A DNA stretch of 64,000 nt from an uncultured Pseudomonadota bacterium (GCA_949296475.1 CASFOK010000007.1:9448-73447); one strand, 5' to 3'; numbered from the stretch's first letter, positions 6,156 through 41,328 are shown. Translations and numbers: made by a program. Notes: generated by a model from the sequence alone, not told the origin.

Positions 6156-6171
6156 TTTTCCCCCACATACT

Positions 6172-11388: not shown

Positions 11389-12093
11389 ATGAGGAAAATT
11401 TTTACAGTTTCTTTTATAAGTTTACTTATTGCAAGCCCCGCCGTTTCCGCAACGCCGTGGTGGCAACAACCGACCGTATGTCGTCTTGACCCGACAAATT
11501 GTTATACCAGTATGGGCATCGGGTACGATAGTGAATTGTGGGATACTAACGGCGGTTGTTGGGGTATGAAATTAATCTGTCCCGAAGCATTGATAAGCAC
11601 ATCGGAAAGTCAACCCATACCTATGGGCAAATCAGACATCGCAAAAAGTAAAAATATAAAACAAGATTTTGATACGAATAAACTAAACGGCGATTGTTTC
11701 GGCGTTCGCAAGACTATTTCTGACGGCGCAATGGCGTCCGTTAACGGTCAATACGTAAAGGTTTGGTGTAACGGCGTTTTGAATAACCCAGATGAATTCT
11801 TACCAAACGGTGAAATAACATTCGGTGAACAACCCAGTTGTTCTGAATTGGCGGACTATGGTTATGTCGCCGTTGTAGATAATAATTGCTATGGGAAATA
11901 TTATGACCCTTCAGAATACCGTATTGAATGTGACAGCGATGATGTATTACCGTCTCGTTTGGTGATATTAAACGGCGCGGATTATTCTACTACATCGGGA
12001 AAATTCCCTGCCGACGTATCTGCTGCGAACAAAATATTTGACGCAATGGAAAACGTATCTGAAAATCAACGTTCAAAATACTATAAAAACTAA
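11389..12093 (+). CDS. Secreted Cys-containing hypothetical protein
   Basis: Signal peptide MRKIFTVSFISLLIASPAVSA. I count 10 Cys in the mature part. Same strand as P3 and 82 nt downstream of it. No recognisable domain. Confidence 0.7.
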   Translation: MRKIFTVSFISLLIASPAVSATPWWQQPTVCRLDPTNCYTSMGIGYDSELWDTNGGCWGMKLICPEALISTSESQPIPMGKSDIAKSKNIKQDFDTNKLNGDCFGVRKTISDGAMASVNGQYVKVWCNGVLNNPDEFLPNGEITFGEQPSCSELADYGYVAVVDNNCYGKYYDPSEYRIECDSDDVLPSRLVILNGADYSTTSGKFPADVSAANKIFDAMENVSENQRSKYYKN

Positions 12094-27200: not shown

Positions 27201-27978
27201 CAATCAGTCCGCCAACCGAATAATTTCCCAAGACGCTAGAAGGGATCGGTGCCCCCGCATAACGCAACGTTCTTTGTCCCATATAACCGCGCGCCAATGG
27301 CGAATAACCGTGCATCATCAATAAATAATTTTGATTATAGGTATTTGTCATAAGTGCAAAGTTATCTTGCAATATTCCAGACGTAGAAGGACTGTAATAA
27401 TTCAAATTAGAAACATAATTTGCCGCCTCTGACGCACTGTTTGGCATTGCCGGACCATATGGTATTTCAAATGCGGCCGTTGCGTTGCCCGAAGTACCGC
27501 CATCGCCCCCAGGTCTTGTACCACCGCTGACCGACCCGCTGGAGTTATCATTTCCAGGATCCAACACGTCTGTTAATAAAAACAGTCCCCCTACAACAAC
27601 GGCGGCACCCGCCGCCGCCAGTGTTATACCGTGGGCGGTAGACAGCCCGCTAAACAGCCCCCCACTACTTTGTGGTTTGTTTTTATTATTATATTGCTTT
27701 ATCTGTTGGTCGCATTTTGACGCATCTGCGCCATACATCTGCAATATTTGCGCCGCCTTGATATCATTATTCATCAACGCAGTACAAACAATTGATAAAC
27801 CTGTGCTATCAACATAATTAATATTTGCACCATTATTTATCAATATCTGTACCTGTTGAATATCACCGTTTTTTGCGGCGGACAATAATTGCGCCGCAAC
27901 AGTAAATTCATTCGTTGCAGCAAATAACGCCCCAGGAATAAAAAATAAAGAAAGTAATAAAAATCTGATGTATTTCAT
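24298..27978 (-). CDS. Giant surface protein: signal peptide, ankyrin repeats, hydrophobic/Gly-rich segment, degenerate subtilase-like region, C-terminal beta-barrel-like domain
   Basis: Signal MKYIRFLLLSLFFIPGALFA. ANK consensus LLSAAKNGDIQQVQILINNGANINYVD..TALMNNDIKAAQILQMYGADA. AVASAAGASGALKSAFPDMTNQQLFALMALTA...GYGLINLERA resembles the Ser-region of S8 peptidases. The last 300 aa or so show an alternating beta-strand pattern. Confidence 0.75.
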   Translation of the reverse strand: MKYIRFLLLSLFFIPGALFAATNEFTVAAQLLSAAKNGDIQQVQILINNGANINYVDSTGLSIVCTALMNNDIKAAQILQMYGADASKCDQQIKQYNNKNKPQSSGGLFSGLSTAHGITLAAAGAAVVVGGLFLLTDVLDPGNDNSSGSVSGGTRPGGDGGTSGNATAAFEIPYGPAMPNSASEAANYVSNLNYYSPSTSGILQDNFALMTNTYNQNYLLMMHGYSPLARGYMGQRTLRYAGAPIPSSVLGNYSVGGLIVGGGRPVTVALITTNGINAASKPAGESTAGVNSLDDKLIAWTDMNGATPAPAEVSMLSSKYYNNVITLGSSEDNQVTNATTSEDGTLVNNFDLSGFGTAVNNTSATSDDNLLAKVVGGNDAGYSSADFMGFMPNGQMLIYRTGGGQGLVTVTGQSATGTYTMAGASLATGDTLNLFDQTLTVTRTGNTIVASDSDSTYTGYIGADGLLYLPSTSGGSVNQAYQMSNNNLTLVKQEAETLDYYNYKALLDAASRITSGDLAGGRSTPFILANASVISPLHQVTSATIDDVLAFGSANNAMQTGFASFVNDYYNQNTTDGDSQTDALPGANATTFFNNLGSSYTPLVIFSTGAFETDSTWSGKTLTASFENSAPLVFDNLEHLFMSVVAVIQSGTGTNGTESVSGYTPQHKYIVSQWQNTNNTPDTTDDDTYFKARVCGISGNGANGIDPWCFASVGVTDELAVASAAGASGALKSAFPDMTNQQLFALMALTADGAYLGTDSSGNTFSESSLIAYLQSMYQMPNEYEYRWQNGGENYLDVFKEVFGYGLINLERATTPGHAVYYYNGTDIVSASGNAYWRAASNTIFRSSSAFNPRVATISAPFFDRLESFDGELSLPRIWKNEFALGVQDKRGLYMGDVLGELKTRNATANKVQFGDFGFSMSMSEKPYADNLNGLDNMQLDYAADNWNLSAGFQRHFTDGASRFDGLSNPVLNMMSNALVSDVAYTLGKWTFGARAFSGDITDEEMLDTDPTVSSQYMPARLGLMQGAQSDISWNSEKFGFTSAVGTAHETDTLLGALTGGLLNIGQGNTTYVDTELRYEPWENIKFKLRSTFAYTTSDASGDFILGLSDIYSNAFAFGMDTDNFSFSVSQPLAVNRGTLQYAYADYGIVETADGKYDLVVNDAYVKDVDLSPEHREVRLSAAYRHNFGPWTDGAIGFIYRINPNNTDYFGNESIFMLKMTHRLGI

Positions 27979-28106: not shown

Positions 28107-28721
28107 TTAACGCGAGTTCACTTTTTGTTTCGTAACTATGATATAACCATTTATTTCATAAGTTTTACATTTTTTCTTTTTATCTTGAACCTTTACTTCT
28201 ACTTTACCGCAATCCGAACAACCGTTGTTAACATATATAGTCCCATTGTTAACAGCACCCTGCTCCAATGTTATTCTTGTATTATTGCTTCCACCGCAAG
28301 AATTACCAACAATTATTTTTCCCTCATTGTCGGCCTTAGTTTTCAAAGTTATTTCTGTATTGTTATTGACATGTTTTTGTGCTTTTGGCTGTACAACGCG
28401 ACGAGCATTTGAAGTACGTTTTACAGAACGACTTTTATTAACCTTGGAGTTTTCGCAATCTTCTAAACGAGAATTTACATCGTTTAAAGAATCACGCAAC
28501 ATAAATATTCTTTCTGCCGCCTTCAAACGTTTTTCTTGCAAGTTATCTATTTTACGTATGGCGTCTTTATAAGCGTCACAGTCTTTATCATTATCTTTCA
28601 TACAATTACCAACACCCAAACCAACGCCTAATCCCATCAACAAAATCACCAATCCCCATACACTATAAGGGATTTTAGCCAACTTTTTATTACTATTTTT
28701 GTTTTCAAAATTTTTATCCAT
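28107..28721 (-). CDS. Single-pass membrane protein with coiled coil and Cys pairs (hypothetical)
   Basis: TM segment VWGLVILLMGLGVGLGVG, then a coiled coil (IRKIDNLQEKRLKAAERIFMLRDSLNDVNSRLEDCE), then Cys-containing C-terminal repeats (NSCGG, NGCSDCG). Confidence 0.6.
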   Translation of the reverse strand: MDKNFENKNSNKKLAKIPYSVWGLVILLMGLGVGLGVGNCMKDNDKDCDAYKDAIRKIDNLQEKRLKAAERIFMLRDSLNDVNSRLEDCENSKVNKSRSVKRTSNARRVVQPKAQKHVNNNTEITLKTKADNEGKIIVGNSCGGSNNTRITLEQGAVNNGTIYVNNGCSDCGKVEVKVQDKKKKCKTYEINGYIIVTKQKVNSR

Positions 28722-28782
28722 TTTGCTCTCCTTGCATTATCTTTGATAGAAATATAATACAAAAATACAAATTTGTCAAGGG

Positions 28783-28805
28783 TTTTTTTATTTTTTTGTT
28801 TTTTT
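28783..28805. repeat. Triple T7 homopolymer tract (T7-A-T7-G-T7) in a divergent promoter region
   Basis: TTTTTTTATTTTTTTGTTTTTTT lies between the divergent 204-aa gene and the P6-P7-P8 operon. Confidence 0.8.
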
Positions 28806-28853
28806 GCTTTTATGGGAATACATTTTTTGATATAGTTACAGATAAAGAGAGAA

Positions 28854-29720
28854 ATGGTAAAAAAAATCGCGTTTTTAATATCTGGTATATTATTATACCC
28901 TGGTTTATCGCTTGCTGCGACTTGTTCGCAAGCAAATTTGACGCGTTGCCTTGATTCTGTATGTGCGATAAACGTATCGTCTAACCCTGCGGCTCGTTGC
29001 CAATATTGTGGTACGTCCAGTGCCGGCAGTCCAGACACAAAAAACGCCATGCGCAGTTTATCGCTTGGGCAATCTGCGAAATATACACTTAGTGAAAAAG
29101 AATTGGACAAGGCGCCCACCGACCCGGGCAAGCGTTATATATGGGCAACGGAACAATGTATAAAAAAGATAGAGGGTTGCACCGCCGAAGACGTATCCGA
29201 CACATATGATAAATTAATAGAACAATCTTGCAAGGCCGCCGGTATAAACGCCCAAATGGCCGCATTGCGTGCCGACGCAAACAAGACGGTCAGTAAGACG
29301 ACCTGTTCTACGGACATAACGTCATGTATGGTTGACAGCAAACGTTGCGGTCCTGATTATCGTTCTTGTGCAAACGATTCGGAATTTAATAATTTCTTTG
29401 CCTATTGTTCTGTAGAGGCCAAGGGTTGCGACGAATACATATCTGACATTCGTTCTGATTTAATATCGCTTCGCGATAACACCATCAAAAACGCGGACTT
29501 GGCCATAGACAATATTGTGTCTGCATATCAAAATGCACGTACTAAAAAAGTATCAGACGCGCAAGATTCTTGTACAAATAACGCTGCACGCGACAGTTGC
29601 GTCAAGACGGTATGCGAACGCAACATGCCAAACAAATGTGGCGAAGGTTACGAATCAGAAAAAAGCGCGGCGACACAATTCTGTAAATTTTATGAATTGG
29701 CCTGCGACGTATTAAAATAG
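28854..29720 (+). CDS. Secreted cysteine-rich protein, short member of the family (P6)
   Basis: Signal MVKKIAFLISGILLYPGLSLA. Degenerate head motif CSQANLTRCLDSVCAINVSSNPAARCQYC. Paired Cys throughout. Confidence 0.8.
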   Translation: MVKKIAFLISGILLYPGLSLAATCSQANLTRCLDSVCAINVSSNPAARCQYCGTSSAGSPDTKNAMRSLSLGQSAKYTLSEKELDKAPTDPGKRYIWATEQCIKKIEGCTAEDVSDTYDKLIEQSCKAAGINAQMAALRADANKTVSKTTCSTDITSCMVDSKRCGPDYRSCANDSEFNNFFAYCSVEAKGCDEYISDIRSDLISLRDNTIKNADLAIDNIVSAYQNARTKKVSDAQDSCTNNAARDSCVKTVCERNMPNKCGEGYESEKSAATQFCKFYELACDVLK

Positions 29721-29727
29721 AAAAGAT

Positions 29728-31338
29728 ATGACGATACGAAGAAAAACTTTTAACGACAAAAAAACAAACGCTTGGTACAAGTCAAGTGGTGTGGTATGTA
29801 TGGCGGTTATATGTTTATACAGCATGCATGCTAGCGGTGCCTCGGTTGTTCAGCGCGAAGTTGCGGCCAGACCGACAGCGGTATCAAATCGTCCGAATAC
29901 GTCTGCACGTATGCCTACGATGGCGACACAAATAGCAGAGACAGTGACCACAACGGAAACAACAACAAACACAGATAATACAACAAGTTCAGAACTCGTT
30001 GATACATCTGACACGACAGAAGAAGAAATCGTCATAGAAAACAAATCGTCGCAATTTTCTGACGTTCTTGGCAACGCCAGCGTATCCAGCCAATCTGATA
30101 CAAGCGACACCGAATTAGCGGAAATGATTCGTCGTCAACGGGCGGCCTTGGACGCAGAATCCGCGGTTAGCACGGTAACGCAATCAACGCAGGCGTCACT
30201 ATCTACTGGTCAAAACGCATGCGACGTTGCATTACGTAAATGTATGCAGGGCAAATGCGGTAACGACTTTTCAAAGTGCAGTAGCGACACGGACACCGCA
30301 TGGGGCAACAAAATGGATTCTTGCCGTCTTGACACAGAATGCACGGGTACAGAGTACAGCAAATTTGCACCGGAAATAAAAGCGGACCGTGACACAAACG
30401 CCCAACTGGCACTATATAACTCTATACTTGATTGCGGTAACAGATATAACGATTGCATTGTCACCCAATGTGGCACGACGTTCAGCAAATGCCTTGGTAA
30501 ATCTGCCGGCGACGCTGCAATATCTGCATGTTCAACGATTGCGACTGAATGCAAATCCCAAGACAGTGGTTTGGCAAGTCGTGCAATGAGTTTATTTGCG
30601 ACATTACGCGTAGACGCCGAAGAACAAGTAAAACGCGACGAAGAACGTTTATATGCATTGCGCGACAAGATGGCAGAACAATGCAACATGTTGGGCGCAA
30701 TGTTTGACGAACGCACGTTTGATTGCGTTTACACGGTTGAATTCTATGCGGGCGACAACAATACTCTGTTTGCATCAAAGAAGGCATATGCAGGTTCTTC
30801 GTTTGACTGCACGCCGAATTGGTTTGGCATAGACATAACGACGTTTAAAGAAAACGCCTATCGTACTACGCGCGCGCAGCAATCTGCGACATCTGCCTTG
30901 TTAGGTTCTGGTCTTGGTGTTGCGGCGGGTGCAGTAACGTCTGGTGCGATAGATCGTGCGATTGACAGACAAAAGGCCGAAAACGCCCTTGACAAAGCAA
31001 AAGAAGAATACGAAGAAAATTATGGTGACGGGTCTAAGTCCACAACCACACAGACAACGGTAACGACGACTAAACCGACACAGAATACATCACCAAATAC
31101 ACCCCCACAACGCGAACAGGAACAACAAAAAAATAACACAATTACAACTGATAAAGAAGGCAGAAAGACCGCGCAAATAGGTGACACAACAGTGACAACC
31201 ATGCCTATGACAGAAGCGTTCAAGCAAGTAACCGGTACCAAAAGTTTCAATGAGAAAGCAGCCGACTATCTTAATAACAACAATTCAAATGGTTTTGCCA
31301 GCAAATTATCACAAAATATTAATACAGACACAAAATGA
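29728..31338 (+). CDS. Secreted cysteine-rich protein with glycine-zipper segment (P7)
   Basis: Hydrophobic N-terminus. RMPTM linker motif. Degenerate head CDVALRKCMQGKCGNDFSKCS. ALLGSGLGVAAGAVTSGAI segment. T/Q/N-rich tail. Confidence 0.8.
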   Translation: MTIRRKTFNDKKTNAWYKSSGVVCMAVICLYSMHASGASVVQREVAARPTAVSNRPNTSARMPTMATQIAETVTTTETTTNTDNTTSSELVDTSDTTEEEIVIENKSSQFSDVLGNASVSSQSDTSDTELAEMIRRQRAALDAESAVSTVTQSTQASLSTGQNACDVALRKCMQGKCGNDFSKCSSDTDTAWGNKMDSCRLDTECTGTEYSKFAPEIKADRDTNAQLALYNSILDCGNRYNDCIVTQCGTTFSKCLGKSAGDAAISACSTIATECKSQDSGLASRAMSLFATLRVDAEEQVKRDEERLYALRDKMAEQCNMLGAMFDERTFDCVYTVEFYAGDNNTLFASKKAYAGSSFDCTPNWFGIDITTFKENAYRTTRAQQSATSALLGSGLGVAAGAVTSGAIDRAIDRQKAENALDKAKEEYEENYGDGSKSTTTQTTVTTTKPTQNTSPNTPPQREQEQQKNNTITTDKEGRKTAQIGDTTVTTMPMTEAFKQVTGTKSFNEKAADYLNNNNSNGFASKLSQNINTDTK

Positions 31339-33515
31339 AAAAGATATTAAATATAATTTTTACGCTATGTATATCGTTCCCCACCTTCGCGGACACTATC
31401 AAGGGAACCATAACAGGTAACCATTCACCACTATCAAACGCCACTATTGTGGCTTTAAACCAACAAAGACAGAATTTCACGCCAATTGCATCGGCCACAA
31501 CAGATAACCAAGGTAATTTTTCATTAACAATTCCGAAAGATACAAAATATCTACAATTTTCAGCAAACAATTACATTACAGCTACTCAAGAGTATAGTGG
31601 TATACCAACATACAAAATAAATTTAGCATCTTCAACACAAAACACCACCAACACAAACCCTCCAACAGAAAGCGCAAATGCCGATCAAACAATTACTATT
31701 TCCGGGACAGTAACAGATGAACAAAACATTCCAATACAAAATGCGAACATAGTCGCATTAAACGATTCAGGAAACGCATTACCAATCGGATGCGCAACCG
31801 ATGAACAAGGCAATTTTACATGCATAAAAATCCCAATTAACACACAAAAATTAAGAGTATCTTATGGAAATGCCCAAAAAGACATTGATATTAACAAATC
31901 ACAAACATATTATGATATAAAACTAAACACAACTGTTGAACTGGAACCAGTAAATGTTACAGGAACCCCTATCTCAATAACCGACAAAGAAGACAAACCG
32001 GTTGCAACGGGTATAGATACATCCAAACTAAAAATAGAATATCCAGATTATGAATGCACAGATAACAAACCTGCAAACGCATTAAAAGTACATTATGACA
32101 CAGAATCTGGGACCTGCATTGTTGATGAATGCGAAGAAGGTTTTACAAGAACGCCCGACAAACTGGCATGCGCAAAAAAAACTCTATCCAAAGAAGACGC
32201 AGAAAAGCAAATTGCTGAACTGCAGCAAAACGCCGACGCCATGAAAGAAAAAGAACAATCCACTGCAAACAAATTATTGGGGGCCGCGTCTATGGGTGCA
32301 ATGGGCATTGGCGGAATGCAGGCTTTATCCGCACTATCAGAACAAAGCGCAGACGCCGCCGCAGAACAAGATATGACCGCATACTTGGCAACTTTCCGTT
32401 GCGATTACGGACAAGGACAAAATATTCATGGTGGCGATACCGACATAATACTGCCTGGCGGTAACGAATTAATATCTTTGTATACTGAATACATTCAACT
32501 TGCCTCGGACTTGAAAACCAGAAAAGAATCATTGGGCATGTCACCCGGCATAGAATCAGAAATGCTGTTGGATAAAGCAGACACAGGTTTGTATGACGAC
32601 GTAGGAACTGGTATAACCACAGGTACGTTTGCGTCTTTGGCGCGTGCATTATCTGACCCGAACAGTGCCGATGCTGCTTTATGGGCGCAACAACAGGCAG
32701 ACACAGCCAGCAAGTTAAAAACCGGTTTAATTACCGCAGGTGCTGGCGCGGTCATAGGCGTTGTGGGAAATATCGCGATAAATAAAAACGCACCAAAAGA
32801 AAATTCGGAACAAATACTTGCCAGTTACGAGTCATTAAAGAAACTTGAATATGAAATCAGCCAACTGCCAGACCAAACGGCAAGCGCAACCTGCCCAACA
32901 GGCACAACGGGGACTGTTCCAAATTGCAAACCCACAAAAACGGGAATTGAGTATAATTCAAACACCAATCAAACAGAAGTAGCATCGGATAAGGATGACT
33001 CACAATCACAAAATAAAAGAATAGACGCAACTGAACTAGAACAGATAACCACTGTTACAAGCGTAGATAGTATCATATCAACCATTGCAAATACTGACGC
33101 AGAAAATAAAAACGATGAAAATACCATTTCTTTATCAGCACGCAATTTGTTTAAGTTAAATGAATATACGTTAGTACCGACATCAAAAACAATAATTGCA
33201 ACATTCGCAACCAACATGTTAAGCACCAATAAGGACAACACAGAATATTGTCTGATTGTTACTGGCAATACTGATAAAACAGGAAACGACCGTATAAATC
33301 AGCCATTATCAGAAAAACGTGCAAAAGCCGTTACAGCCCAACTTAGCTTATTCGGAATTCCAGAAGCCAACATACTATCTAAGGGGGCAGGCTCGCAAAA
33401 CTGTACAGATGCTTTTCGTAAGGAAAAAAATTGCAACGGCAATAATTGCGAAGCGTGCAGAAATGTAACAATAGAATATGAACCTTCATCATGTGCAGCA
33501 TTGAGCGCAAAATAA
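31335..33515 (+). CDS. Multidomain envelope protein: two CarboxypepD_reg-like domains, Cys module, coiled coil, glycine zippers, OmpA-like peptidoglycan-binding domain (P8)
   Basis: The start overlaps the P7 stop (ATGA). GTITGNHSPLSNATIVALN...DNQGNFSL and GTVTDEQNIPIQNANIVALN...DEQGNFTC repeats. The C-terminus IVTGNTDKTGNDRINQPLSEKRAKAVTAQLSLFGI...GAG matches the OmpA C-like pattern. Confidence 0.8.
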   Translation: MKKILNIIFTLCISFPTFADTIKGTITGNHSPLSNATIVALNQQRQNFTPIASATTDNQGNFSLTIPKDTKYLQFSANNYITATQEYSGIPTYKINLASSTQNTTNTNPPTESANADQTITISGTVTDEQNIPIQNANIVALNDSGNALPIGCATDEQGNFTCIKIPINTQKLRVSYGNAQKDIDINKSQTYYDIKLNTTVELEPVNVTGTPISITDKEDKPVATGIDTSKLKIEYPDYECTDNKPANALKVHYDTESGTCIVDECEEGFTRTPDKLACAKKTLSKEDAEKQIAELQQNADAMKEKEQSTANKLLGAASMGAMGIGGMQALSALSEQSADAAAEQDMTAYLATFRCDYGQGQNIHGGDTDIILPGGNELISLYTEYIQLASDLKTRKESLGMSPGIESEMLLDKADTGLYDDVGTGITTGTFASLARALSDPNSADAALWAQQQADTASKLKTGLITAGAGAVIGVVGNIAINKNAPKENSEQILASYESLKKLEYEISQLPDQTASATCPTGTTGTVPNCKPTKTGIEYNSNTNQTEVASDKDDSQSQNKRIDATELEQITTVTSVDSIISTIANTDAENKNDENTISLSARNLFKLNEYTLVPTSKTIIATFATNMLSTNKDNTEYCLIVTGNTDKTGNDRINQPLSEKRAKAVTAQLSLFGIPEANILSKGAGSQNCTDAFRKEKNCNGNNCEACRNVTIEYEPSSCAALSAK

Positions 33516-33911
33516 CGAACACATATGCTTAGAAAGATTTTCCAATCAGGCTGTCAAATATATTAAAAATATATCAATATTATAACATATAACCGCAATC
33601 GTTTAGAATAAAAGATTTTTCCGAACGTTTATATGATAATACTTTTTATTTAACATCAACGACAACCAAACGCGGTTCTATATAAAACTAATTACATATA
33701 CGCCCAATTATCGCAATTAGAATATACAAGTTACGTCCGCCACGGACTTCACAACCATTTCATCATGTGATATAAATCAAAACATATAAATTCGCATATT
33801 CAACAACACCGAAATATACCCAGAGCCTTTATATTTACCCTGCCCTTTGATTCATATCATTTATGCACATTTAATGTCTTTGGATATTAAATCATTTTAG
33901 ATTTATACATA

Positions 33912-33940
33912 CAACAAACAAAAACCGCCCGTTTGGGCGG
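33912..33940 (-). terminator. Rho-independent terminator after P9
   Basis: CCGCCC/GGGCGG stem (33925-33940), followed on the minus strand by TTTTTGTTTGTTG. Confidence 0.65.
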
Positions 33941-33962
33941 CTTGTATAAAAAGCACTCAGAT

Positions 33963-36053
33963 TTACTCGCATGCACCGTATGATTTTGCCACCGGATAAT
34001 TTTCTGTGCATACACTGCCCGCTACTGCGCACGCCGAAGATACCAACGTAGACGTAACTGCACCGGCTGGCTTATAATTTATTTGTGCGATTTTGCATTG
34101 ATTCAAATCCGTCAAGGTACCGCAAGTACGACGCCAAGACTCGCAATCTGTTGCCGTTCCTGTTGGTAAAATGTTATCTGGCAAACGCAAATTCCACTTT
34201 ACATAAAAGTCTTTTAACGAACCTATGGAATAAGATTTACCCAATCCAACCTGTGCCAAACCGTCACCAACCCGACAGTTAATATTACTGCGTTCTACAA
34301 AGGCGGTAATTGCGGTTGCCAATCCACCTGCCCCGGCACCGATACCGGCACCAATGGCGATACTTTGTGCCATATTAGACTTTTCACCGTTTTGGATTAA
34401 ATCCACCATATTATCGGTATAAATCTTTGCCAAGACTTTCATATCAGGTTCCAACTGTTCTGGTGTTTTGCAATCTAGCCCGTCACCTTCACAAAATATC
34501 CCAGTACCCGATTTACGTGCCTGATTTATCGCCTTGAATAAACAAGCGGAATCTTTTGCGAGCAACTTATTAACATCATCAGAATTAAGCGCTATCATCA
34601 GTTTGTTTCTTATATCTGGAGCTATATTATTAATATCAATTGTCTGTAAGTCTACATCCCCGCTTGCAGAAGCATTTTTCTTCACATTTTCGCAAACTGC
34701 ATTGTATCCATCTGTCTCACAAACATTTACAACAGCGTTAAATTTATACACCAATGTTTCAGAGGTTACGCTTGTACTACATCTGGCCAATTCTGCCTGT
34801 AACTGACTATAAGTATCATACAACGTAACTATTTCTTCGCATTGAGCCTGGGTTATAACTTTATCATTTGCCCCTATTGGCGATGACATATATTGACTAA
34901 TCCGACCAAAATTGCCGTTTGAACGCAATTCTGTCGTCATCATTTCACGATGCTTTTCATTACTACAATCCAACAAACGTGAACCATGACCAACAGCCGC
35001 GCCGATACCACCGCCAACCAAAGTACCACCACCAATTCCAACAACAGCAACCGTGGCAGTATCATTTAATAATGAAAACCCAAATAAATCTTTGTTACAG
35101 GTAAACGTATCACCCGCCAGTTTCCATACCTCTGCCGGTTCATCGTCACCCAAGGCACCAAACAACCAACTGTTTGTAATATGTTCGTCCTTGTTATAAG
35201 CCGCAACACGTATCCAGCATTCTGCTGTAACCGGATCCCAACGCGCATAGTGTCCACGTTGTCCGTCAACACCATTACTGCTGTTTACATTAACGCCTTG
35301 GGGTTGCGTTTTAATCAGCGCGTTTCCGTTTTGGCTGTTATAAGCGCCAATAGAAATGTTGTATTCCGCCGTCACAGAACCAGAATTAGAAACCGCACCA
35401 AACGAAGAACCATAAGTATTCCTGTCTAACAACAAACAAGTATTTTCCGCCTGATTTGGCGTTAAGCCCGTTTTACGCAAGACAAAATTATAATATTCCG
35501 GTTGAACGATACGCGCATTAAAGTCTAACCATACATCAGCCGAACTTCTGTATATATTTCTGCAATCCCTGCGAACTTCACTTATACATCTTTCAACCTG
35601 TACTGTACACAGCCCCATACCGTTAACAATGGAATTACGTAATTCTTCGCTGAACAAGTCGTTTAATCCGTTTGGCAAAGCCCCATTATTAACGCAAGCC
35701 AAAACATCGTTCATACAATTATCAATTGTATATTCGGAATTTCTTACGCCGCCATCTGGGCAATCTGTTTCTGGTTTTGGTTCTGGATCAATATCACCGC
35801 CACCGCCATTGCCGTCATCACCGCCATCACCACTTGGTAAATTAGGGGACAAGTTCCCAGTTGCAGAACCCGGTAACGTCGGCATAGTCGGCATACGTTG
35901 CGTTGAAGTATTCTGCATTTCCCCAGAGCGATTCAAAGAACGCACATTATACGTAGCCCGCCCTGCAGAATCAGCCGCATAAACGGTACCAATAAACACA
36001 AACAGTCCTAATCCTGCAATAGAAGCACTGACAACGTTACGCATATTTGGCAT
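33963..36053 (-). CDS. Secreted cysteine-rich protein with two glycine-zipper segments (P9)
   Basis: Start at 36051-36053, after a GGGGGAG Shine-Dalgarno. Signal ...GLFVFIGTVYA. RMPTM linker motif. CMNDVLAC head variant. VAVVGIGGGTLVGGGIGAAVG and IAIGAGIGAGAGGLATAI segments. Cys-rich C-terminus. Confidence 0.8.
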   Translation of the reverse strand: MPNMRNVVSASIAGLGLFVFIGTVYAADSAGRATYNVRSLNRSGEMQNTSTQRMPTMPTLPGSATGNLSPNLPSGDGGDDGNGGGGDIDPEPKPETDCPDGGVRNSEYTIDNCMNDVLACVNNGALPNGLNDLFSEELRNSIVNGMGLCTVQVERCISEVRRDCRNIYRSSADVWLDFNARIVQPEYYNFVLRKTGLTPNQAENTCLLLDRNTYGSSFGAVSNSGSVTAEYNISIGAYNSQNGNALIKTQPQGVNVNSSNGVDGQRGHYARWDPVTAECWIRVAAYNKDEHITNSWLFGALGDDEPAEVWKLAGDTFTCNKDLFGFSLLNDTATVAVVGIGGGTLVGGGIGAAVGHGSRLLDCSNEKHREMMTTELRSNGNFGRISQYMSSPIGANDKVITQAQCEEIVTLYDTYSQLQAELARCSTSVTSETLVYKFNAVVNVCETDGYNAVCENVKKNASASGDVDLQTIDINNIAPDIRNKLMIALNSDDVNKLLAKDSACLFKAINQARKSGTGIFCEGDGLDCKTPEQLEPDMKVLAKIYTDNMVDLIQNGEKSNMAQSIAIGAGIGAGAGGLATAITAFVERSNINCRVGDGLAQVGLGKSYSIGSLKDFYVKWNLRLPDNILPTGTATDCESWRRTCGTLTDLNQCKIAQINYKPAGAVTSTLVSSACAVAGSVCTENYPVAKSYGACE

Positions 36054-36189
36054 AAAAACTCCCCCTTGTTTATCTTTGTAATTATACCCTAAAAACACAT
36101 TAAAAAAAAGCCTTTTTTGATAAATCTGTAATTAAATATAAAACATTAAAAAACTTGACAAAATACACATACTGTCTATTATATAAATT

Positions 36190-37233
36190 ATGAGCAAGAT
36201 TTTTAACCTTATCACCACGCACAAAAACGCTATCATATGGTCAGCGTGCTATTGCGTTGTGATATGGGTGATATTGCTTTGGCTGTTCAATTTTGACATA
36301 TTTTCGTTAAACGCTTGGGCACAGTTACCCAAAGCCAACCTAAATAACTTTCCGGGTCTTGTGTTTGTTATATTATTACTCGCAGCAATACCCTTGTACA
36401 TTGCGACAACGACGTTAATAATCAGAACCAAGAAGCCCTTATTTACAATACCGATACCAAAATTTCTGTATCCGGTACCAGAAAAAGAAGAAAGTACCGA
36501 ATCGAAAAAAGAAACCAAAGACAACCCCGAAACAAATCAACCAATCGCAGAGACATTACCTGCGGGCATTCCTGCCGAGTTGCGCACGCCGTTTTTACGC
36601 GCCCGCGAACACATTCGCGCAGGTATAACGACGCCCCCCGTCGTTAATAAGTACAACGAAATCGCATCTGCGGCGAACATGACTGATACAGTTTCAAGCG
36701 CCCCAAGTCCAACAACTAACAACGACGAAAAACGCGACACAACAAGCAGCGTCACAGATACAAACCTGCCTATTCCTGACGACTTTGATTTTGAGGTTCC
36801 AGACACAGACGATTCGGAATACGCCGATGAATCCATGCCGCATTTTTCGCCTGTATTTACAGACATAGACTTTGATGAAAAAGACGGGGACAGCGACGAT
36901 GACGCGACGACAGAGTCCCAAGAAACAGTGATAAAATTCCTGCAATCGCGTAAAGAGAGTTTTGAACAAGACCAAGACATAATAATCAGCGACAATTTTG
37001 TCATAGGCATTCATTCAGACCCGGACTTTTGGATAGCGGACGAAGAACTATGGTTTGCGGCTGGCAAGCAGAAAGAATCACCGATAAAGAAGATACAAGA
37101 CATTGCCTTGTCCAAGCAATTACAAGGTGTATTATATCTTGCTGAAACGAACATAATGGACCTAGATACCAAGATATCAGAATGGTCAGAATCAGGAATT
37201 AAAGTAATCAGGTCTATATCTGAACTGGGATAA
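36190..37233 (+). CDS. Membrane protein with acidic C-terminal region (hypothetical)
   Basis: Two to three N-terminal TM segments (AIIWSACYCVVIWVILLWLF, GLVFVILLLAAIPLYIATTTLII), then a D/E/T/S-rich region. No recognisable domain. Confidence 0.6.
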   Translation: MSKIFNLITTHKNAIIWSACYCVVIWVILLWLFNFDIFSLNAWAQLPKANLNNFPGLVFVILLLAAIPLYIATTTLIIRTKKPLFTIPIPKFLYPVPEKEESTESKKETKDNPETNQPIAETLPAGIPAELRTPFLRAREHIRAGITTPPVVNKYNEIASAANMTDTVSSAPSPTTNNDEKRDTTSSVTDTNLPIPDDFDFEVPDTDDSEYADESMPHFSPVFTDIDFDEKDGDSDDDATTESQETVIKFLQSRKESFEQDQDIIISDNFVIGIHSDPDFWIADEELWFAAGKQKESPIKKIQDIALSKQLQGVLYLAETNIMDLDTKISEWSESGIKVIRSISELG

Positions 37234-37254
37234 ATCAAACATAAATAAACATTA

Positions 37255-40200
37255 TTAACTTCCAAATCCTTTCGATTGTCCCAACGTACGTCTACCATAA
37301 GGATTTGAAGACTCTAAACTTGGTTGAGACAATGTACTAGATCCACCGCCTGTCGACGTATTACTACTACTCCCACTAGAAGTACTTTTTGTGCTTACAG
37401 GACTAGCAGAAGAAGATGACCCACTGTTACCAATATTGCTGATATCGCCTGTACTAATACCAAGCGAAAATCCGCCCCCATTTTTCTCTGTTACATTACT
37501 GACCGAAGATTGATCATTATAATAAGACTGTAAATTACTACGTGTAGTTAAACCAAACGACTGTTGCGACCCAACCGCAAAACTTACCAACTGCTCGGTA
37601 ATAACCGGTTCAGCATAAGTACTACAGAAATTCCCCTGATATGTATCCGAGGCTTTGGATTGAGAATATCCGGCACTTCCACCAAAAGGCCCAACCTGAG
37701 CCCCCACCTCACCACTATAACTTGCAGATTTATAATTATATATCGCCTCAAACCCTGTACATGGATATGTAGTTGTGGTTATCCTGCATGTGCTGGTACC
37801 TGGCTCATATATACCGGTAATTGTTTGTTTGCCAATCATACGACCACTAAATAACCCCTTAGATTCCACTATTACCTTTTCTACCCCTTTACTTTCCAAC
37901 AATACATTTAACATTTCATCATCTGTTACACCGTTTATAATAACAGACCAATCATTTGATTCTTTAATTCCACTGTTTTTGTTAGACAATCTTGTTGAAG
38001 CATATTCTTCACCTTGCACCAAAGCATTGCAATATATCTGATTTTTATATTCATCTGCTGTACTGATTGCCTGTGCAAACAAATTTGCGTATTGTGCGTC
38101 ATAATTTGACTTTGCCGAATCCAAAACGGCATTAGCTATCACATTCGTATAAGAATCCAACAAATGCGGGAAACGCGCAGTTGTTCTATCTACTACGTTA
38201 CGCGATGTAACACCGCGAATCTGACTCATATCACGACCGCTAACACACATTGTTATTTCTGGATCTGATGCCAATATATCTATCCGTCTTTGAATTTCAT
38301 TCTGAATACCCGTCAAAGCGGTACGGATTCTTTCCTTTGATTCATCGTTAGCATCGGCAATTTGCGACATGTATTTATTAATATCCAAATTATACTGACC
38401 ATTTGAATTTTGACCCAAAGTTAAATTGCTATATAAAATAACACCGTCTATAACATAATCACCACTGGAATTTTTATAACTTACCAAACTGTTTTTTCCT
38501 ATATTAGCATCCTGAGAAAAAATATCACAACTTGTCAAATCTCCGCACAAGGACAGCATTTTTTCATTAACTATATTTTGACACTGTTCTAGCATGGCAT
38601 TATCTATACCCAAATAAATACCTTGTAACATATAATCAATATCAACCATACTTGTTAATTCACCATTTTGTTGACATGCGACAAGTTTTTCTAAAGGACA
38701 CATTTGACGTATTGACGCCAAATCCAATCCGATACATTGTGTATAATCCTTTCCGCATCTATCATCTGCTTGCAGACATTCTTTAACAGCAGTCGTACAA
38801 GAATCCACTCTCATAGAAGCCAATCTAGCGACAACGAAATCCCAAATCTGAGATTCTTCAGCCTTTGCGACAGAAGAAGCATCAATACCGCAAGCATTTA
38901 AAGGGACCTTGCACAAATTCAACATAGTCTCTGGTCTTGTTAAACACATGTCATAAGAACCATCAGGGTCATTAGGATCAATGTTATCTTTACAAGCCTT
39001 TTGGAAGCAATCAGAAATAGATCCGATACAATTTTGTCTTGCATCGTTTTCAGCGATTAATTCTGCGGATTTTATTTGAGGTGCAATGTCTTTCAAGAAA
39101 GTGTCCCAAACTTTATCGGCGACAGCGACACAAGATTTAGTAACGCCTTCGCATAAAGGTTTTTTTGCCAATAAAGTATCATAAGTAGAAGCATAGATTT
39201 CTATGCCAGTAACAGTACCTTGAATAGTATAAGTAGCAGGTTTTCTGTTAGCTCTTTGACTGGCATTAGTATTATCAAAAGCAGCGACAGAAGCACATTT
39301 TGAAAAATCGTCGCCGCAACCAGCGGTAGTAATCATACAGTTTTTAAACTCTACGGCACATTGTCCTAAATCATACTTATTAGCAGATTGATATTGCTCT
39401 AACGCTGCACTCCTTAATGCTTGTTCTGCGGCGTACAATTTTTGCGCGCTTGAATTTTTTTGCTGTTTCAGACTATTTTCATATGCACTGCAATCCGACT
39501 TTATTTGTTGCGAATACATCAACTGTAACATTGACAATTCTGATTGACACTCTGGCACTTGTGCGACGCAAATATCATTAGCTGCCTGATACAACGCATC
39601 GCCCTCTTTGCCTTCTATGGGGTTATTAGACGCGTTTTCACCAAAGATATCATCTTCTTCATCTTCTTCGTCAACGTTCATATTCCAAAGCGACAAATCC
39701 AAAGTACGCTTTTGTTCTTCTTGACCTGCTTTTAGTATGGATTCCGCAACAGCATTTGCGTTTGCGATTGCCGCATCGGCCGCATCGCCCATTTCTATTC
39801 TTTCAACGCCAACCGTGGCCATTTGATAACTTTGTTGGTCCAGTTTTTCTATTTCCGCCAACACGGTATCCAATTCAGCGTTTTTATCACTGCAAATACA
39901 GCGACCACCGTTATCGTTATCTAACATACAGAAAGAATCCATACAACCCATGTATTTCTGACGACACGCTTCGCTAACGATTACGTTTTCCGTTGCCGAT
40001 GCAACCTTGGTTCCCGTAGAAATTACCTTTTGCGTTGTTCCAGCACGCGCAACAACACCCGTTGTCGCGGGGGCAGTTGACGCCGGCGTCGCGCTTCTTG
40101 AAACGGTTGTTCTGCCCGTGGTTGCCGACCTGGCCGGTGCAGTTGTTCTGGTACTGGTCGCACTGCGCGCAGTCGTTGCACTGCGTGCAGAAACAGCATT

Positions 40201-40332
40201 TGTCCGCGAAGATGTCGCAGCAGTTGTCCCTTCTTCTGCAGCGGCCTGACCCCGCCGTTGCTGGGGCACCGCAGCATTTGCAGACGTAATAAGCAAACCC
40301 AAAAACGCAAAAAATACAACGAAACGTTTCAT
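37255..40332 (-). CDS. Large secreted cysteine-rich coiled-coil protein, uncharacterised paralog family (P5)
   Basis: Signal MKRFVVFFAFLGLLITSANA. (A)RSAT repeat linker. Head motif ACRQKYMGCMDSFCMLDNDNGGRCICS. Collinear with P1 over most of its length (e.g. KYDLGQCAVEFKNCM vs KYDLGQCMVEFKKCM). S/G-rich tail. Confidence 0.85.
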   Translation of the reverse strand: MKRFVVFFAFLGLLITSANAAVPQQRRGQAAAEEGTTAATSSRTNAVSARSATTARSATSTRTTAPARSATTGRTTVSRSATPASTAPATTGVVARAGTTQKVISTGTKVASATENVIVSEACRQKYMGCMDSFCMLDNDNGGRCICSDKNAELDTVLAEIEKLDQQSYQMATVGVERIEMGDAADAAIANANAVAESILKAGQEEQKRTLDLSLWNMNVDEEDEEDDIFGENASNNPIEGKEGDALYQAANDICVAQVPECQSELSMLQLMYSQQIKSDCSAYENSLKQQKNSSAQKLYAAEQALRSAALEQYQSANKYDLGQCAVEFKNCMITTAGCGDDFSKCASVAAFDNTNASQRANRKPATYTIQGTVTGIEIYASTYDTLLAKKPLCEGVTKSCVAVADKVWDTFLKDIAPQIKSAELIAENDARQNCIGSISDCFQKACKDNIDPNDPDGSYDMCLTRPETMLNLCKVPLNACGIDASSVAKAEESQIWDFVVARLASMRVDSCTTAVKECLQADDRCGKDYTQCIGLDLASIRQMCPLEKLVACQQNGELTSMVDIDYMLQGIYLGIDNAMLEQCQNIVNEKMLSLCGDLTSCDIFSQDANIGKNSLVSYKNSSGDYVIDGVILYSNLTLGQNSNGQYNLDINKYMSQIADANDESKERIRTALTGIQNEIQRRIDILASDPEITMCVSGRDMSQIRGVTSRNVVDRTTARFPHLLDSYTNVIANAVLDSAKSNYDAQYANLFAQAISTADEYKNQIYCNALVQGEEYASTRLSNKNSGIKESNDWSVIINGVTDDEMLNVLLESKGVEKVIVESKGLFSGRMIGKQTITGIYEPGTSTCRITTTTYPCTGFEAIYNYKSASYSGEVGAQVGPFGGSAGYSQSKASDTYQGNFCSTYAEPVITEQLVSFAVGSQQSFGLTTRSNLQSYYNDQSSVSNVTEKNGGGFSLGISTGDISNIGNSGSSSSASPVSTKSTSSGSSSNTSTGGGSSTLSQPSLESSNPYGRRTLGQSKGFGS

Positions 40333-40482: not shown

Positions 40483-41328
40483 ATGTCTATAAAATCTTAT
40501 GAACCAGATATCAACGTTGCAAAATCCTATTACTTCACATACAAATCTGGATTTCGCAAATATCTAAACCCAAATAAAAAAATGTTTAACGAATATTCTC
40601 CTGCCTATATAAAGACCAATGAACCGCTTAGGAAAATAACAGGTGCCACCGCTTCATTCGCAAAAGATGTTTTAACAACTGCGGCCAGTGGTGACCATCC
40701 TATTTTTTACAAATTAAATGCCGCCGAAAACATTGATACGTTTGATGTATCTTTTTGCGCCAAAGCAATCATGGACATCAAGGTTGCTGCGTTGCAAAAC
40801 GACCTATCTCTTGATCAATATACGTATCTGTTGTCACGCTTGTACAAAACAAACGACATAAAAAGCATTCCATATATGGCAGATATAATTACAAAACTGC
40901 CAAACGATACAAAACAATTCGTGACCGCAATGAACGACTATAACATATTTGGCAGCGGGAATAATATTTCTGATTCTAACAAACACACCCTGCCAACGGA
41001 ACAAGAATTTGAACTTATGAAAAAATCTATTACCAAACCGTTTAATTTTATCTGGTCTGATATCATGTCACTACATACGCACTTAACAAAGCAGTACGAT
41101 GTAATAAATCTGTCAAATATTCCAGAATATTTAACCGCCGAAAGCATTTTACAGTTATTAACCGATTTAAAGAACAACCTTAAAATCAACGGTTATTTTG
41201 TATCAGACGCGCCTTCATTTGCCGAAGATAACACAAGAAGCAAAATGATAAAGATTTTACCAGAGATTAATTCTTGGGCGATTGCCAGAATGCCGAAAGA
41301 AATTTTGTTTGTTCAAAAAATACGCTAA
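40483..41328 (+). CDS. Hypothetical protein, possibly DUF3419/BtaA-like SAM-binding fold
   Basis: VLTTAASGDHPIFYKLNAAENIDTFDVSFCAKAIMDIKVAAL loosely resembles the N-terminal nucleotide-binding motif of DUF3419 proteins. This is a weak call. Confidence 0.35.
   Translation: MSIKSYEPDINVAKSYYFTYKSGFRKYLNPNKKMFNEYSPAYIKTNEPLRKITGATASFAKDVLTTAASGDHPIFYKLNAAENIDTFDVSFCAKAIMDIKVAALQNDLSLDQYTYLLSRLYKTNDIKSIPYMADIITKLPNDTKQFVTAMNDYNIFGSGNNISDSNKHTLPTEQEFELMKKSITKPFNFIWSDIMSLHTHLTKQYDVINLSNIPEYLTAESILQLLTDLKNNLKINGYFVSDAPSFAEDNTRSKMIKILPEINSWAIARMPKEILFVQKIR

Follow-up and report, generated by a model that had tools for sequence, protein, structure and literature searches.

The window, the whole 64,000-nucleotide stretch of DNA analysed here, comes from an uncultured gut alphaproteobacterium of the order Rs-D84 (Candidatus Enterousia-like, genomes <1 Mb). 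The lineage is described as partner-dependent, encodes many membrane proteins without explanation, has been proposed to take metabolites from other cells, retains rod-shape and peptidoglycan genes and is reportedly without respiratory chains (PMC12306168). Cluster 2 comprises seven ORFs, all located where the preliminary description had placed them, and an independent public gene call on the identical contig has matching genes (536, 726, 711, 347, 1025 and 281 aa). Adjoining the cluster is a minus-strand gene for a large Ank protein of 1226 aa (24298-27978), with a signal peptide, Ank repeats, a long unassigned region and a Gly/Ala-rich hydrophobic segment at residues 117-135. M1 (28107-28721, minus strand) is a small, poorly conserved protein, found at ~10 related loci with 30-39% identity. 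It is followed on the plus strand by the operon of P6 (28854-29720; 288 aa), P7 (29728-31338) and P8 (31335-33515). The remaining genes of the cluster are P9 (33963-36053, minus), M2 (36190-37233, plus) and P5 (37255-40332, minus). Next to P5 lies X (40483-41328, plus), a cytoplasmic protein with weak likeness to SAM-dependent methyltransferases (DUF3419/CheR-like). M1 and M2 had been called membrane proteins, in agreement with the single N-terminal hydrophobic GxxxG-type segment of M1 and the two transmembrane helices of M2, which are accompanied by an acidic, probably cytoplasmic C-terminal domain. All five P proteins (P5-P9) have Sec-type signal peptides. The cleavage sites read from the sequences of P6, P8, P9 and P5 (...SLA/ATC, ...FA/DT, ...YA/AD and ...ANA/AV, respectively) are of the signal peptidase I type, and an L-x-x-C lipobox is absent from the N-termini of these four proteins. 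No relatives of P5, P6, P7 or P9 were found in Pfam, NCBIfam or PDB.

The packing of the genes is as previously described. The P6 stop codon (TAG, 29718-29720) and the P7 start (ATG, 29728) are separated by 7 nt, P7 and P8 overlap in an ATGA (31335-31338), and P9 is convergent with P8. A strong GC-rich hairpin terminator (33922-33943) lies between the latter two in a 448-nt AT-rich spacer. We compared gene order at 78 loci from related MAGs, with protein identities of 45-70%. The order rpoA-L17-X-P5-M2-P9-P8-P7-P6-(M1)-large Ank protein recurs in dozens of related genomes, so that the neighbourhood is truly conserved, and is so throughout the order Rs-D84. Within this sample M2 and P9 are divergent neighbours in 60/60 loci, P6 is followed by P7 in 34/34 and P7 by P8 in 20. 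The large Ank protein, a divergent neighbour of P6, adjoins it directly or via M1 in 26 loci, and X is the divergent neighbour of P5 in most relatives (40 loci). Spacing across relatives ranges from -19 to +22 nt for P6-P7 and from -4 to +59 nt for P7-P8. P8 is absent beside P7 in ~14 loci, so the two need not be partners in cis. In some genomes, cluster-1 genes directly adjoin cluster-2 genes. The conserved order and spacing bear out the earlier view of a coordinated envelope neighbourhood, not scattered orphans. The accompanying statement that both clusters are flanked by autotransporters is correct for cluster 1 only. The cluster-1 neighbour (12176-15217) is a genuine type Va autotransporter, with a Pmp-like passenger and a PF03797 beta-domain (116 bits). 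The cluster-2 neighbour (24298-27978) differs from this type, since searches of Pfam, NCBIfam and PDB returned Ank repeats only and no PF03797 beta-domain was detected, even at E<=1 on the C-terminal 347 aa. None of P5-P9 is a type Va autotransporter.

P5 is a full member of the window's own Cys-rich family, which it forms together with the cluster-1 proteins A, B and C (P1-P4 of the preliminary description). It matches A with 36% identity over 737 aa (E=5e-140) and B with E=6e-50. The N-terminal 750 residues of P5 are conserved and the C-terminal third is variable. Helices make up most of its predicted structure, with a variable, beta-rich C-terminus and a tail rich in Ser; the AF2 model, of moderate confidence (mean pLDDT 54.5), is largely helical and puts the four-Cys module described below in a helix-loop-helix. 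P5 genes occur as tandem duplicates in many genomes. The claim that the cluster adds five members to this family therefore holds in full for P5, in part for P6 and P7, which share one ~22-aa four-Cys module with it, and not for P8 and P9, which have no significant relation to the cluster-1 family. None of P6, P7, P8 and P9 was found to resemble A, B or C along the greater part of its sequence.

The shared module reads C-x6-C-x4-6-C-G-x-[DNT]-[FYW]-x2-C (~22 residues) and is common to A, B, C, P5, P6 (one copy) and P7 (two copies). It is located at nt 39295-39360 and 38734-38799 in P5, at residues 151-172 of P6 (nt 29304-29369), and at nt 30220-30279 and 30433-30492 in P7. HMMs of the module match 21 P6 orthologues (best E=3.9e-7) and 13 P7 orthologues (best E=7.6e-5), but neither P8 nor P9 nor anything unrelated among the 3,192 ORFs of related loci. 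In a six-frame search of the window, 9/11 matches fall inside the genes for A, B, C, P5, P6 and P7, and hhalign of the module in P6 and P7 against the family gives probabilities of 60-80%. The family's head motif, C-x6-C-M-D-x-F-C-x9-C-x-C, lies at nt 39892-39966 in P5. The strings quoted earlier are present, with CLDSVC in P6, CMQGKC in P7, CMNDVLAC in P9 and GCMDSFC in P5. Their interpretation as degenerate heads in P6, P7 and P9 has no statistical backing, however. A head HMM built from P5 orthologues scored P6 at E=9.1 and did not match P7 or P9, and in sub-alignments hhalign places P6 weakly on the head (14 columns, E=0.019) and aligns other residues of P7 and P9.

P8 was proposed as a peptidoglycan-anchor partner, and its OmpA-type domain scores above the Pfam cut-off (46.3 bits vs 27.2), which supports a predicted role in peptidoglycan binding. 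The PF00691 match covers residues 605-690 (nt 33147-33404; segment TDKTGNDRINQPLSEKRAKAV), and this segment has the usual D...R pattern of ligand binding. P8 is like the OmpA/Pal/MotB family in this domain; unlike that family, P8 confines it to the final 120 of its 726 residues and is without a beta-barrel, a lipobox or a MotB-type N-terminal helix. P8 further has the signal peptide, two CarboxypepD_reg domains and an EGF-like Cys cluster. Two Gly-rich segments (nt 32274-32336 and 32724-32780) enclose a conserved core (residues 290-480) that matches no family, within which Cys356 (nt 32400-32402) is the single invariant core cysteine. The architecture is retained among the 120 homologues listed, with the OmpA domain in all but one, and the number of N-terminal modules varies.

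P9 belongs to a separate, highly conserved family that is lineage-restricted (159 relatives among 1.84 billion representatives). Orthologues favour an ATG start at 36053 (696 aa) over the upstream GTG at 36098. The signal peptide is followed by a conserved 9-Cys N-domain, Gly-rich segment 1 (nt 34995-35051), a variable middle, Gly-rich segment 2 (nt 34305-34361) and a conserved 7-Cys C-domain; the mean pLDDT of the predicted structure is 43.8. P9 has an RMPTMPT motif (nt 35877-35897) and P7 an RMPTMAT motif (nt 29908-29928). Residues 355-402 of P7 also align with 328-363 of P9 (E=2e-4) in a Cys-plus-helix unit that includes the cysteine. P7 is exported and has a conserved core and a variable tail, with a Gly-rich hydrophobic segment at nt 30895-30951. 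C361 (nt 30808-30810) is the candidate unpaired cysteine of its 15-Cys core. In other genomes the P7 tails carry EGF-like Cys repeats, charged spacer helices and CarboxypepD_reg-like modules.

The parity of the cysteine counts differs among these proteins, counted after removal of signal peptides at crude or alignment-based cuts. P5 has an even count in 70/74 locus orthologues and 100/119 database homologues, P6 has 20 cysteines in 33/33 orthologues, and P9 is even in 32/32 locus orthologues and 113/119 homologues (61 even/58 odd with the signal peptide included). P7 is odd in 32/34, with counts of 15, 17, 19, 21, 23, 33, 39 and 41, and P8 is odd in 23/27 locus orthologues and 96/112 homologues, with counts from 5 to 63. 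An adjacent pair in cluster 1 is likewise odd, C in 6/7 and D in 6/6. The cytoplasmic controls have random parity (X, 30 even/24 odd; M2, 29 even/32 odd). The pattern also holds by region: P9 has 9 cysteines (117/119), an even middle (115/119) and 7 cysteines (119/119); P8 is even (105/119), has exactly one in the core (119/119) and is even again (113/119); and P7 has 15 in its N region in 33/34, followed by a tail that is always even. The exported regions thus follow the even-count rule for cysteines in predicted disulfides, and the cytoplasmic proteins are free of such a constraint. Because orthologues are not independent samples, the counts overstate the statistical weight. Parity that is patterned in exported proteins and random in cytoplasmic ones argues that every cysteine is disulfide-paired, and we infer from it that P5-P9 probably reside in an oxidising extracytoplasmic compartment. 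P6-P7-P8 had been suggested to form a stoichiometric complex. The conserved odd counts lend indirect support to a link between P7 and P8, but not to the inclusion of P6 with its even, invariant 20. Homodimers or a free functional thiol would explain odd parity no less well than a P7-P8 bond would.

With about even confidence, we propose that cluster 2 encodes a lineage-specific, disulfide-bonded envelope scaffold that is anchored to peptidoglycan in Rs-D84 gut Alphaproteobacteria. P5 and its cluster-1 paralogues would be long, mostly helical, disulfide-stapled proteins, and P6 and P7 would reuse the family's four-Cys module, which could be a helix-loop-helix stapled by two disulfides. The proteins would assemble into the scaffold, the Gly-rich GxxxG-type hydrophobic helices of P7, P8 and P9 may fix it to a membrane, probably the outer one, and the OmpA-type domain of P8 may tie it to peptidoglycan. 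P7 and P8, encoded by adjacent, tightly packed genes, would each contribute one unpaired cysteine to an intermolecular disulfide, the candidates being C361 of P7 and C356 of P8. In P9 the equivalent link would be made within one chain, from the 9-Cys N-domain to the 7-Cys C-domain (candidate residues C334 and C608, numbered on the 711-aa form), and would pin the bases of both hydrophobic helices together. The parts that vary, namely the C-terminus of P5, the tail of P7, the N-terminal Ig-like modules of P8 and the middle of P9, may be adaptive, outward or partner-facing surfaces. Counting against the scaffold are the poor structure predictions for P5 and P9, the non-independence of the orthologues, the other readings of odd parity, the loci without P8 beside P7, the lack of Pfam glycine-zipper matches in P7, P8 and P9, and a lineage reported to be without respiratory chains (PMC12306168), set against the need to reoxidise a DsbB- or VKOR-type system.

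Those variable parts also suit a different primary role, in which the cluster chiefly supplies a repertoire of proteins for surface adhesion or for contact with partners, with the P5 family, P7 tails and Ig-like/EGF-like N-terminal modules of P8 as variable adhesins and the conserved parts as their anchor only. An obligately partner-dependent bacterium would use these to bind other cells or the host, and the idea overlaps with the scaffold. We regard it as possible but somewhat unlikely. The variable C-terminal third of P5 and its tandem duplicates, the composition of the P7 tails, the changing module number of P8, the nearby Ank-repeat protein and Pmp-type autotransporter, and a lineage proposed to draw metabolites from other cells (PMC12306168) are all consistent with it. 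However, no route across the outer membrane was found for the cluster-2 proteins, no adhesin family was matched in Pfam or NCBIfam, and P6 and P9 are too conserved for variable antigens.

Rather unlikely, in our estimation, is that the odd cysteines form no P7-P8 bridge, with P8 C356 in a cytoplasmic loop between two inner-membrane helices or acting as a catalytic or free thiol, or with P7 and P8 each as homodimers. C356 is indeed the only cysteine in the best-conserved stretch of P8 and is flanked by two hydrophobic segments, a setting expected of a catalytic residue or a cytoplasmic loop, and P7 occurs without an adjacent P8 at the loci noted above. The loop after segment 1 of P8 is acidic, however, and so ill-suited to the cytoplasm, and no enzyme family in Pfam or NCBIfam matches the C356 region. 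Even parity on both sides of the hydrophobic segments in P7 and P9 implies that those segments do not separate periplasm from cytoplasm, and the second adjacent odd-odd pair, C and D, hints that such pairing follows a general rule. We consider it highly improbable that the motifs bind metals (Zn or Fe-S clusters) and form no disulfides. The four-Cys modules look like metal-binding sites, and the habitat is anoxic and the lineage without the respiratory chains that normally reoxidise DsbB (PMC12306168), but the counts step by two and not by four (34, 36, 38; 20 to 28; 15 to 41), the parity pattern is kept within each region and is confined to exported ones, and many cysteines form isolated pairs that belong to no four-Cys module. 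Chance juxtaposition of unrelated orphan or spurious ORFs, to which the absence of annotation, Pfam family or database name for P5, P6, P7 and P9 might point, has a next to negligible probability and is already contradicted by the conservation data, namely hundreds of full-length homologues (931 for P5, 757 for P9 and 382 for P8), many invariant residues and conserved gene order.

In the chlamydial outer membrane complex, the cysteine-rich proteins OmcB and OmcA occur with Pmp autotransporters, and disulfides are thought to give structural cohesion. The proposed scaffold is similar in that several exported Cys-rich envelope proteins are encoded by a host- or partner-dependent, small-genome bacterium, with a Pmp-repeat autotransporter nearby (12176-15217). 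It differs in that genes for rod shape and peptidoglycan are retained in the Rs-D84 lineage (PMC12306168) and P8 is a predicted peptidoglycan binder, and in that the proteins here are predicted to be helical and have their own four-Cys module. No chlamydial OMP family in Pfam was matched at E<=1 by any window protein or by 13 P5 and 22 P9 homologues. The likeness is a functional analogy only. The outer two gaps of the module put cysteine pairs about two helical turns apart, as in twin CX9C/CHCH proteins and the Helicobacter cysteine-rich Sel1-repeat proteins; the spacing here is Cx6C rather than Cx9C, and no homology to either was detected.

A bolder form of the scaffold is that the Gly-rich helices of P7, P8 and P9 are alpha-helical outer-membrane spans with their bases pinned by disulfides (P9 C334-C608 and P7-P8 C361-C356), which we think quite unlikely. 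If true, this would be a class of complex not described before, alpha-helical, tethered to peptidoglycan and spanning the outer membrane, which would display variable modules for partner-cell contact in an obligately partner-dependent bacterium with hundreds of cysteines to oxidise without a respiratory quinone pool. SlyB, YfgH and YiaD of E. coli are described as outer-membrane transmembrane glycine-zipper lipoproteins (bioRxiv 10.64898/2025.12.22.696046), and the exported P7, P8 and P9 resemble them in their GxxxG-rich hydrophobic helices. In P8, as in YiaD, a GxxxG helix precedes the OmpA-like domain. Unlike the SlyB/YiaD type, P7, P8 and P9 are without a lipobox, are 3 to 5 times larger and have large Cys-rich domains, and the segments of P8 and P9 are 130-210 residues apart and form no tight hairpin. 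The isolated segments of P7, P8 and P9 matched no Pfam glycine-zipper model at E<=1. The NCBIfam YiaD match of P8 covers the OmpA part only, and only cluster-1 protein B has a Gly-zipper_Omp match, which is below the cut-off (20.7 bits vs 25).

The seven ORFs of the second cluster (28107-40332) lie where the preliminary description had placed them, and an independent gene call returned the same set on the identical public contig. The membrane protein M1 (28107-28721) is encoded on the minus strand. P6 (28854-29720), a 288-aa soluble exported protein, P7 (29728-31338) and P8 (31335-33515) are on the plus strand. P9 (33963-36053) is on the minus strand, M2 (36190-37233), a membrane protein with two transmembrane helices and an acidic tail, is on the plus strand, and P5 (37255-40332) is on the minus strand. 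P5 to P9 all bear signal peptides. P9 starts at an ATG; a GTG at 36098 is a possible upstream alternative, but orthologs begin at the ATG. The tight packing of the plus-strand genes was borne out, with 7 nt from the P6 stop to the P7 start and an ATGA overlap of P7 and P8. No terminator-like site was found on the plus strand within P6-P7-P8, and a strong hairpin (33922-33943) is located between the convergent P8 and P9. Rfam and tRNA scans of the cluster detected no RNA element. The 448 nt spacer between P8 and P9 (33516-33962) is AT-rich and non-coding, with no ORF of at least 50 aa, no Rfam match and the terminator hairpin as its sole feature. Gene X (40483-41328), beside P5, has a weak likeness to methyltransferases.

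A P5 profile recovered 78 related loci, in which genes were mapped by tblastn and ORF mapping, the ORFs being called by a simple custom script. The MAGs that contain these loci are labelled Candidatus Enterousia, uncultured Rickettsiales or uncultured Alphaproteobacteria, and were obtained from the guts of human, ruminant, horse, chicken and mouse, among others. EF-Tu, also encoded in the window, falls into a protein cluster that carries the name 'Alphaproteobacteria bacterium' MAG. The recurrent order across these loci is rpoA-L17-X-P5-M2-P9-P8-P7-P6-(M1)-large Ank protein, the last being an ankyrin-repeat protein, with 45-70% protein identity. M2 and P9 are divergent neighbors in 60/60 loci and P6 is directly followed by P7 in 34/34. 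P7 is followed by an adjacent P8 in 20 loci, P8 and P9 are convergent in 21, M2 adjoins P5 in 44 and P5 adjoins X in 40, while the Ank protein is beside P6 in 16 loci and in 10 others with M1 between them. Where loci are rearranged, P7-P6 with the Ank protein, X with P5, and M2 with P9 each move as one unit. Spacing is also kept, at −19 to +22 nt for P6-P7 (three larger negative values reflect ATG over-calling) and −4 to +59 nt for P7-P8. Several genomes (L028, L053, L073) have the genes of the first cluster, which are the Cys-rich A, B and C and their neighbor D, directly adjoining those of cluster 2 in the order D-C-B-A. The proposal of a conserved neighborhood thus stands: far from never occurring together in related genomes, the genes strongly co-occur across the 78 loci. 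Cluster 2 is a conserved system.

P5 to P9 had been called five members of one family. This is correct for P5, since A (3663-6191), B (6216-8381), C (8853-11306) and P5 are clear paralogs (BLASTP, E 1e-13 to 1e-140). P6 and P7 are mosaic relatives, linked to the family by a short module. They match single family sequences at only E~1e-3 in BLASTP, and their common ground with P5 in profile-profile comparison is one short stretch of 22-29 residues (60-80% probability). HMMs of the four-Cys module (C-x6-C-x4-6-C-G-x-[DNT]-[FYW]-x2-C) were built from two P5 modules, CAVEFKNCMITTAGCGDDFSKC and CTTAVKECLQADDRCGKDYTQC, and run on 3,192 ORFs. They match P6 residues 150-172 in 21 orthologs (best E=3.9e-7) and P7 residues 165-186 in 13 orthologs, with no match outside the family among the ORFs searched. 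Translated in all six frames, the window has 11 copies of the core pattern CG-x-[DNT]-[FYW]-x2-C, and nine lie within A, B, C, P5, P6 and P7. P8 and P9, in contrast, are different proteins with no significant relation to the family by BLASTP, profile-profile or HMM comparison. Degenerate forms of the CMDxFC-type N-terminal head motif, previously assigned to P6, P7 and P9, could not be substantiated. A P5 head-motif HMM reaches none of the three, and sub-alignments gave no link beyond a weak alignment of P6 CLDSVC with CMDSFC (E=0.019, 14 columns).

P7 and P9 show kinship to each other in two places. One is an N-terminal region with the motif R-M-P-T-M-[AP]-T (78% probability); a P9-derived HMM covering it also matches B orthologs (E=4e-5). 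The other is the alignment of AGSSFDC-TPNWFG and the following Gly-rich helix with AGDTFTC-NKDLFG and its Gly-rich helix (E=2e-4). The comparison of P8 with P9 was not significant, the likeness being confined to six residues, TF-x-C-[DN], around a lone Cys. The R-M-P-T-M-[AP]-T motif sits in a disordered stretch after the signal peptide (nt 29908-29928 in P7, nt 35877-35897 in P9). B has only a diverged form at residues ~33-47 (TRMSQAGARTPNMAT), and P5 and C have repeated ARSAT- or RSATN-like units at this position. The motif may act as a shared tag for docking or sorting.

P8 is made up of a signal peptide, two CarboxypepD_reg domains, an EGF-like Cys cluster, a conserved core (~residues 290-480) between two Gly-rich hydrophobic segments (segments 1 and 2), and an OmpA domain. 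The OmpA end is kept and the number of N-terminal modules varies among the 120 homologs listed. This domain architecture of P8 is new to the OmpA family. P9 is 54-65% identical across the order, with many invariant residues, and a variable middle separates its own two Gly-rich segments. When the P9 profile was run exhaustively with HMMER against 1.84 billion representatives, only 159 relatives came up, with no annotated distant family among them; the weakest matches form a sister family that shares the two-segment layout. Four distant P9-like proteins (P0452, P0453, P0459, P0460) have a signal peptide, SRARPGS and MPS-x-P-[ST]-L motifs and a pair of Gly-rich segments, the second of which is followed by a conserved Cys. 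This shared layout points to a wider superfamily beyond the close P9 orthologs.

The 931 homologs of P5 are all unnamed and none has a Pfam domain; conservation is concentrated at residues 100-750. The AF2 model of P5 (13 sequences; mean pLDDT 54.5) is of modest confidence and consists mainly of long helices, with a C-terminal part rich in beta structure. The P9 model (22 sequences) was poor (pLDDT 43.8), and Foldseek found no PDB match to it with E<0.97. The P5 and P9 profiles had no meaningful match to PDB sequences, and Pfam and NCBIfam scans of the single proteins and of all P5 and P9 alignment members (E<=1) gave no consistent family. We found no Pfam, NCBIfam or PDB sequence relative of P5, P6, P7 or P9, and no prior description of the cluster in the literature. 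Neither the P5/P6/P7 module family nor the P9 family has been described before, and both are restricted to an order that has received little study. P5-type genes are duplicated in tandem or divergently in many genomes (L007, L014-L016, L031, L033, L035, L036, L070-L072), which indicates that the P5 family expands and contracts locally. The P7 tail is long in loci where P8 is not adjacent (L053, L066, L018, L034, L038, L043), with highly charged K/E-rich spacers and then either EGF-like Cys repeats or modules resembling CarboxypepD_reg, types also present at the P8 N-terminus. A P7-P8 fusion was not found among the long P7 orthologs, the tails of which carry EGF-like or Ig-like modules instead.

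Cysteines were counted in locus orthologs and database homologs after removal of the signal peptide; the cuts are approximate and the counts come from phylogenetically dependent orthologs. The number is even in P5 (70/74 and 100/119, mostly 34, 36 or 38 Cys), P6 (20 Cys in 33/33, all positions invariant) and P9 (32/32 and 113/119), as it is in A and B with 36 each. It is odd in P7 (32/34; counts of 15, 17, 19, 21, 23, 33, 39 and 41) and in P8 (23/27 and 96/112; counts of 5 to 63). As an internal control, P9 with its signal peptide counted gave 61 even and 58 odd. The cytoplasmic control X gave 30 even and 24 odd, and M2, a control for cytoplasmic tails, 29 even and 32 odd. Parity also holds by region. 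The N-domain of P9 has nine Cys (117/119), the middle an even number from 4 to 12 (115/119) and the C-domain seven (119/119). In P8 the count is even ahead of segment 1 (105/119), exactly one between the segments (119/119) and even again after segment 2 (113/119). P7 has 15 Cys before its single hydrophobic segment (33/34) and a variable tail in which the count is always even, from 0 to 26.

Counts that change in steps of two, and do so only in exported proteins, are expected if every Cys is disulfide-bonded. The P proteins probably sit in an oxidizing compartment. Parity is obeyed on both sides of the Gly-rich segments of P7 and P9, which argues against these segments being inner-membrane helices that lead into the cytoplasm. 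In P9, the odd Cys counts of the N-domain and the C-domain imply one disulfide between the two domains, and the candidate pair is C334, 16 residues before segment 1, and C608, 10 residues after segment 2 (711-aa numbering). By the same reasoning one unpaired Cys would be left in each of P7 and P8. In P8 the candidate is C356, the only Cys that is invariant in the conserved core, and in P7 it is C361, after local pairing; C361 is homologous to P9 C334 in the alignment. As the P7 and P8 genes are adjacent and tightly packed, the simplest reading is an intermolecular P7-P8 disulfide, which would mimic between chains the pin that P9 makes within a single chain. The odd counts of P7 and P8 are equally compatible with homodimers or with a free functional thiol. 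In cluster 1, C (29-35 Cys, odd in 6/7) and D (11389-12093; nine Cys in 6/6) adjoin in the same orientation. This odd-odd pair suggests a second covalently linked pair, mirroring P7 and P8.

Our working model, which we hold at about even confidence, is that cluster 2 encodes a lineage-specific, disulfide-bonded envelope scaffold. Its Gly-rich helices would keep it at a membrane, and the P8 OmpA domain would tie it to peptidoglycan, with the P5 C-terminus, P7 tail, P8 N-terminal modules and P9 middle as its variable parts. A closely related alternative places the main emphasis on adhesion to partner cells, and is favored by the modular, variable P7 tails in other genomes, the tandem P5 duplications and a partner-dependent lifestyle (PMC12306168). 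The Cys motifs are unlikely to bind metal because the Cys counts shift two at a time. The conservation of the genes excludes a chance cluster.

Enterousia, placed in the order Rs-D84, and its relatives are widespread in human, livestock and rodent guts, have genomes of <1 Mb and are believed to live at the expense of other cells (PMC12306168). Clusters 1 and 2 together take up ~25 kb of such a genome. Given this share and the lack of annotated relatives for P5, P6, P7 and P9, these genes are leading candidates to encode the cell-surface or envelope machinery behind that lifestyle. The parity rule makes concrete predictions, cheap to test, of the covalent links between proteins and of the residues that form them, and region-wise Cys parity across orthologs is a reusable route to topology and covalent partners from sequence alone. 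The rule also raises the question of how a strictly fermentative organism without respiratory chains makes so many disulfides.

P8, with its Gly-rich segment and OmpA domain, recalls YiaD. SlyB and YfgH are described as outer-membrane lipoproteins with transmembrane glycine zippers (bioRxiv 10.64898/2025.12.22.696046). Unlike these three, the proteins here are without lipoboxes, and none of P7, P8 and P9 matches a Pfam model for glycine zippers.

In function, the closest analog is the outer membrane complex of Chlamydia, which contains cysteine-rich proteins and Pmp autotransporters. A Pmp-repeat autotransporter likewise flanks cluster 1, but the proteins here have no homology to the chlamydial ones. 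The preliminary description placed autotransporters beside both clusters, and only the one at cluster 1 was confirmed. This gene (12176-15217, minus strand) encodes a Pmp-like repeat passenger and a PF03797 autotransporter beta-domain, which scores 116 bits when the C-terminal 294 aa are scanned alone and is not listed in a full-length scan at E<=0.01. The gene beside cluster 2 (24298-27978, minus strand) encodes the large Ank protein, in which no autotransporter beta-domain was found, though its C-terminus looks beta. This exported protein of 1226 aa has ankyrin repeats directly after the signal peptide, followed by a Gly/Ala-rich hydrophobic segment. Ankyrin repeats are unusual in a Sec-exported protein. 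Upstream of cluster 1, a MotA/ExbB-like protein with a weak ZorA-like match (1168-1947, plus strand) is paired with a MotB/OmpA-like peptidoglycan-binding protein of the PRK09039 type (1984-3096, plus strand), a second peptidoglycan-binding partner near Cys-rich genes. The window also has a choloylglycine hydrolase family gene of the bile-salt-hydrolase type (18472-19581, plus strand; PF02275, E=8e-66), which is notable for a minimal-genome gut bacterium.
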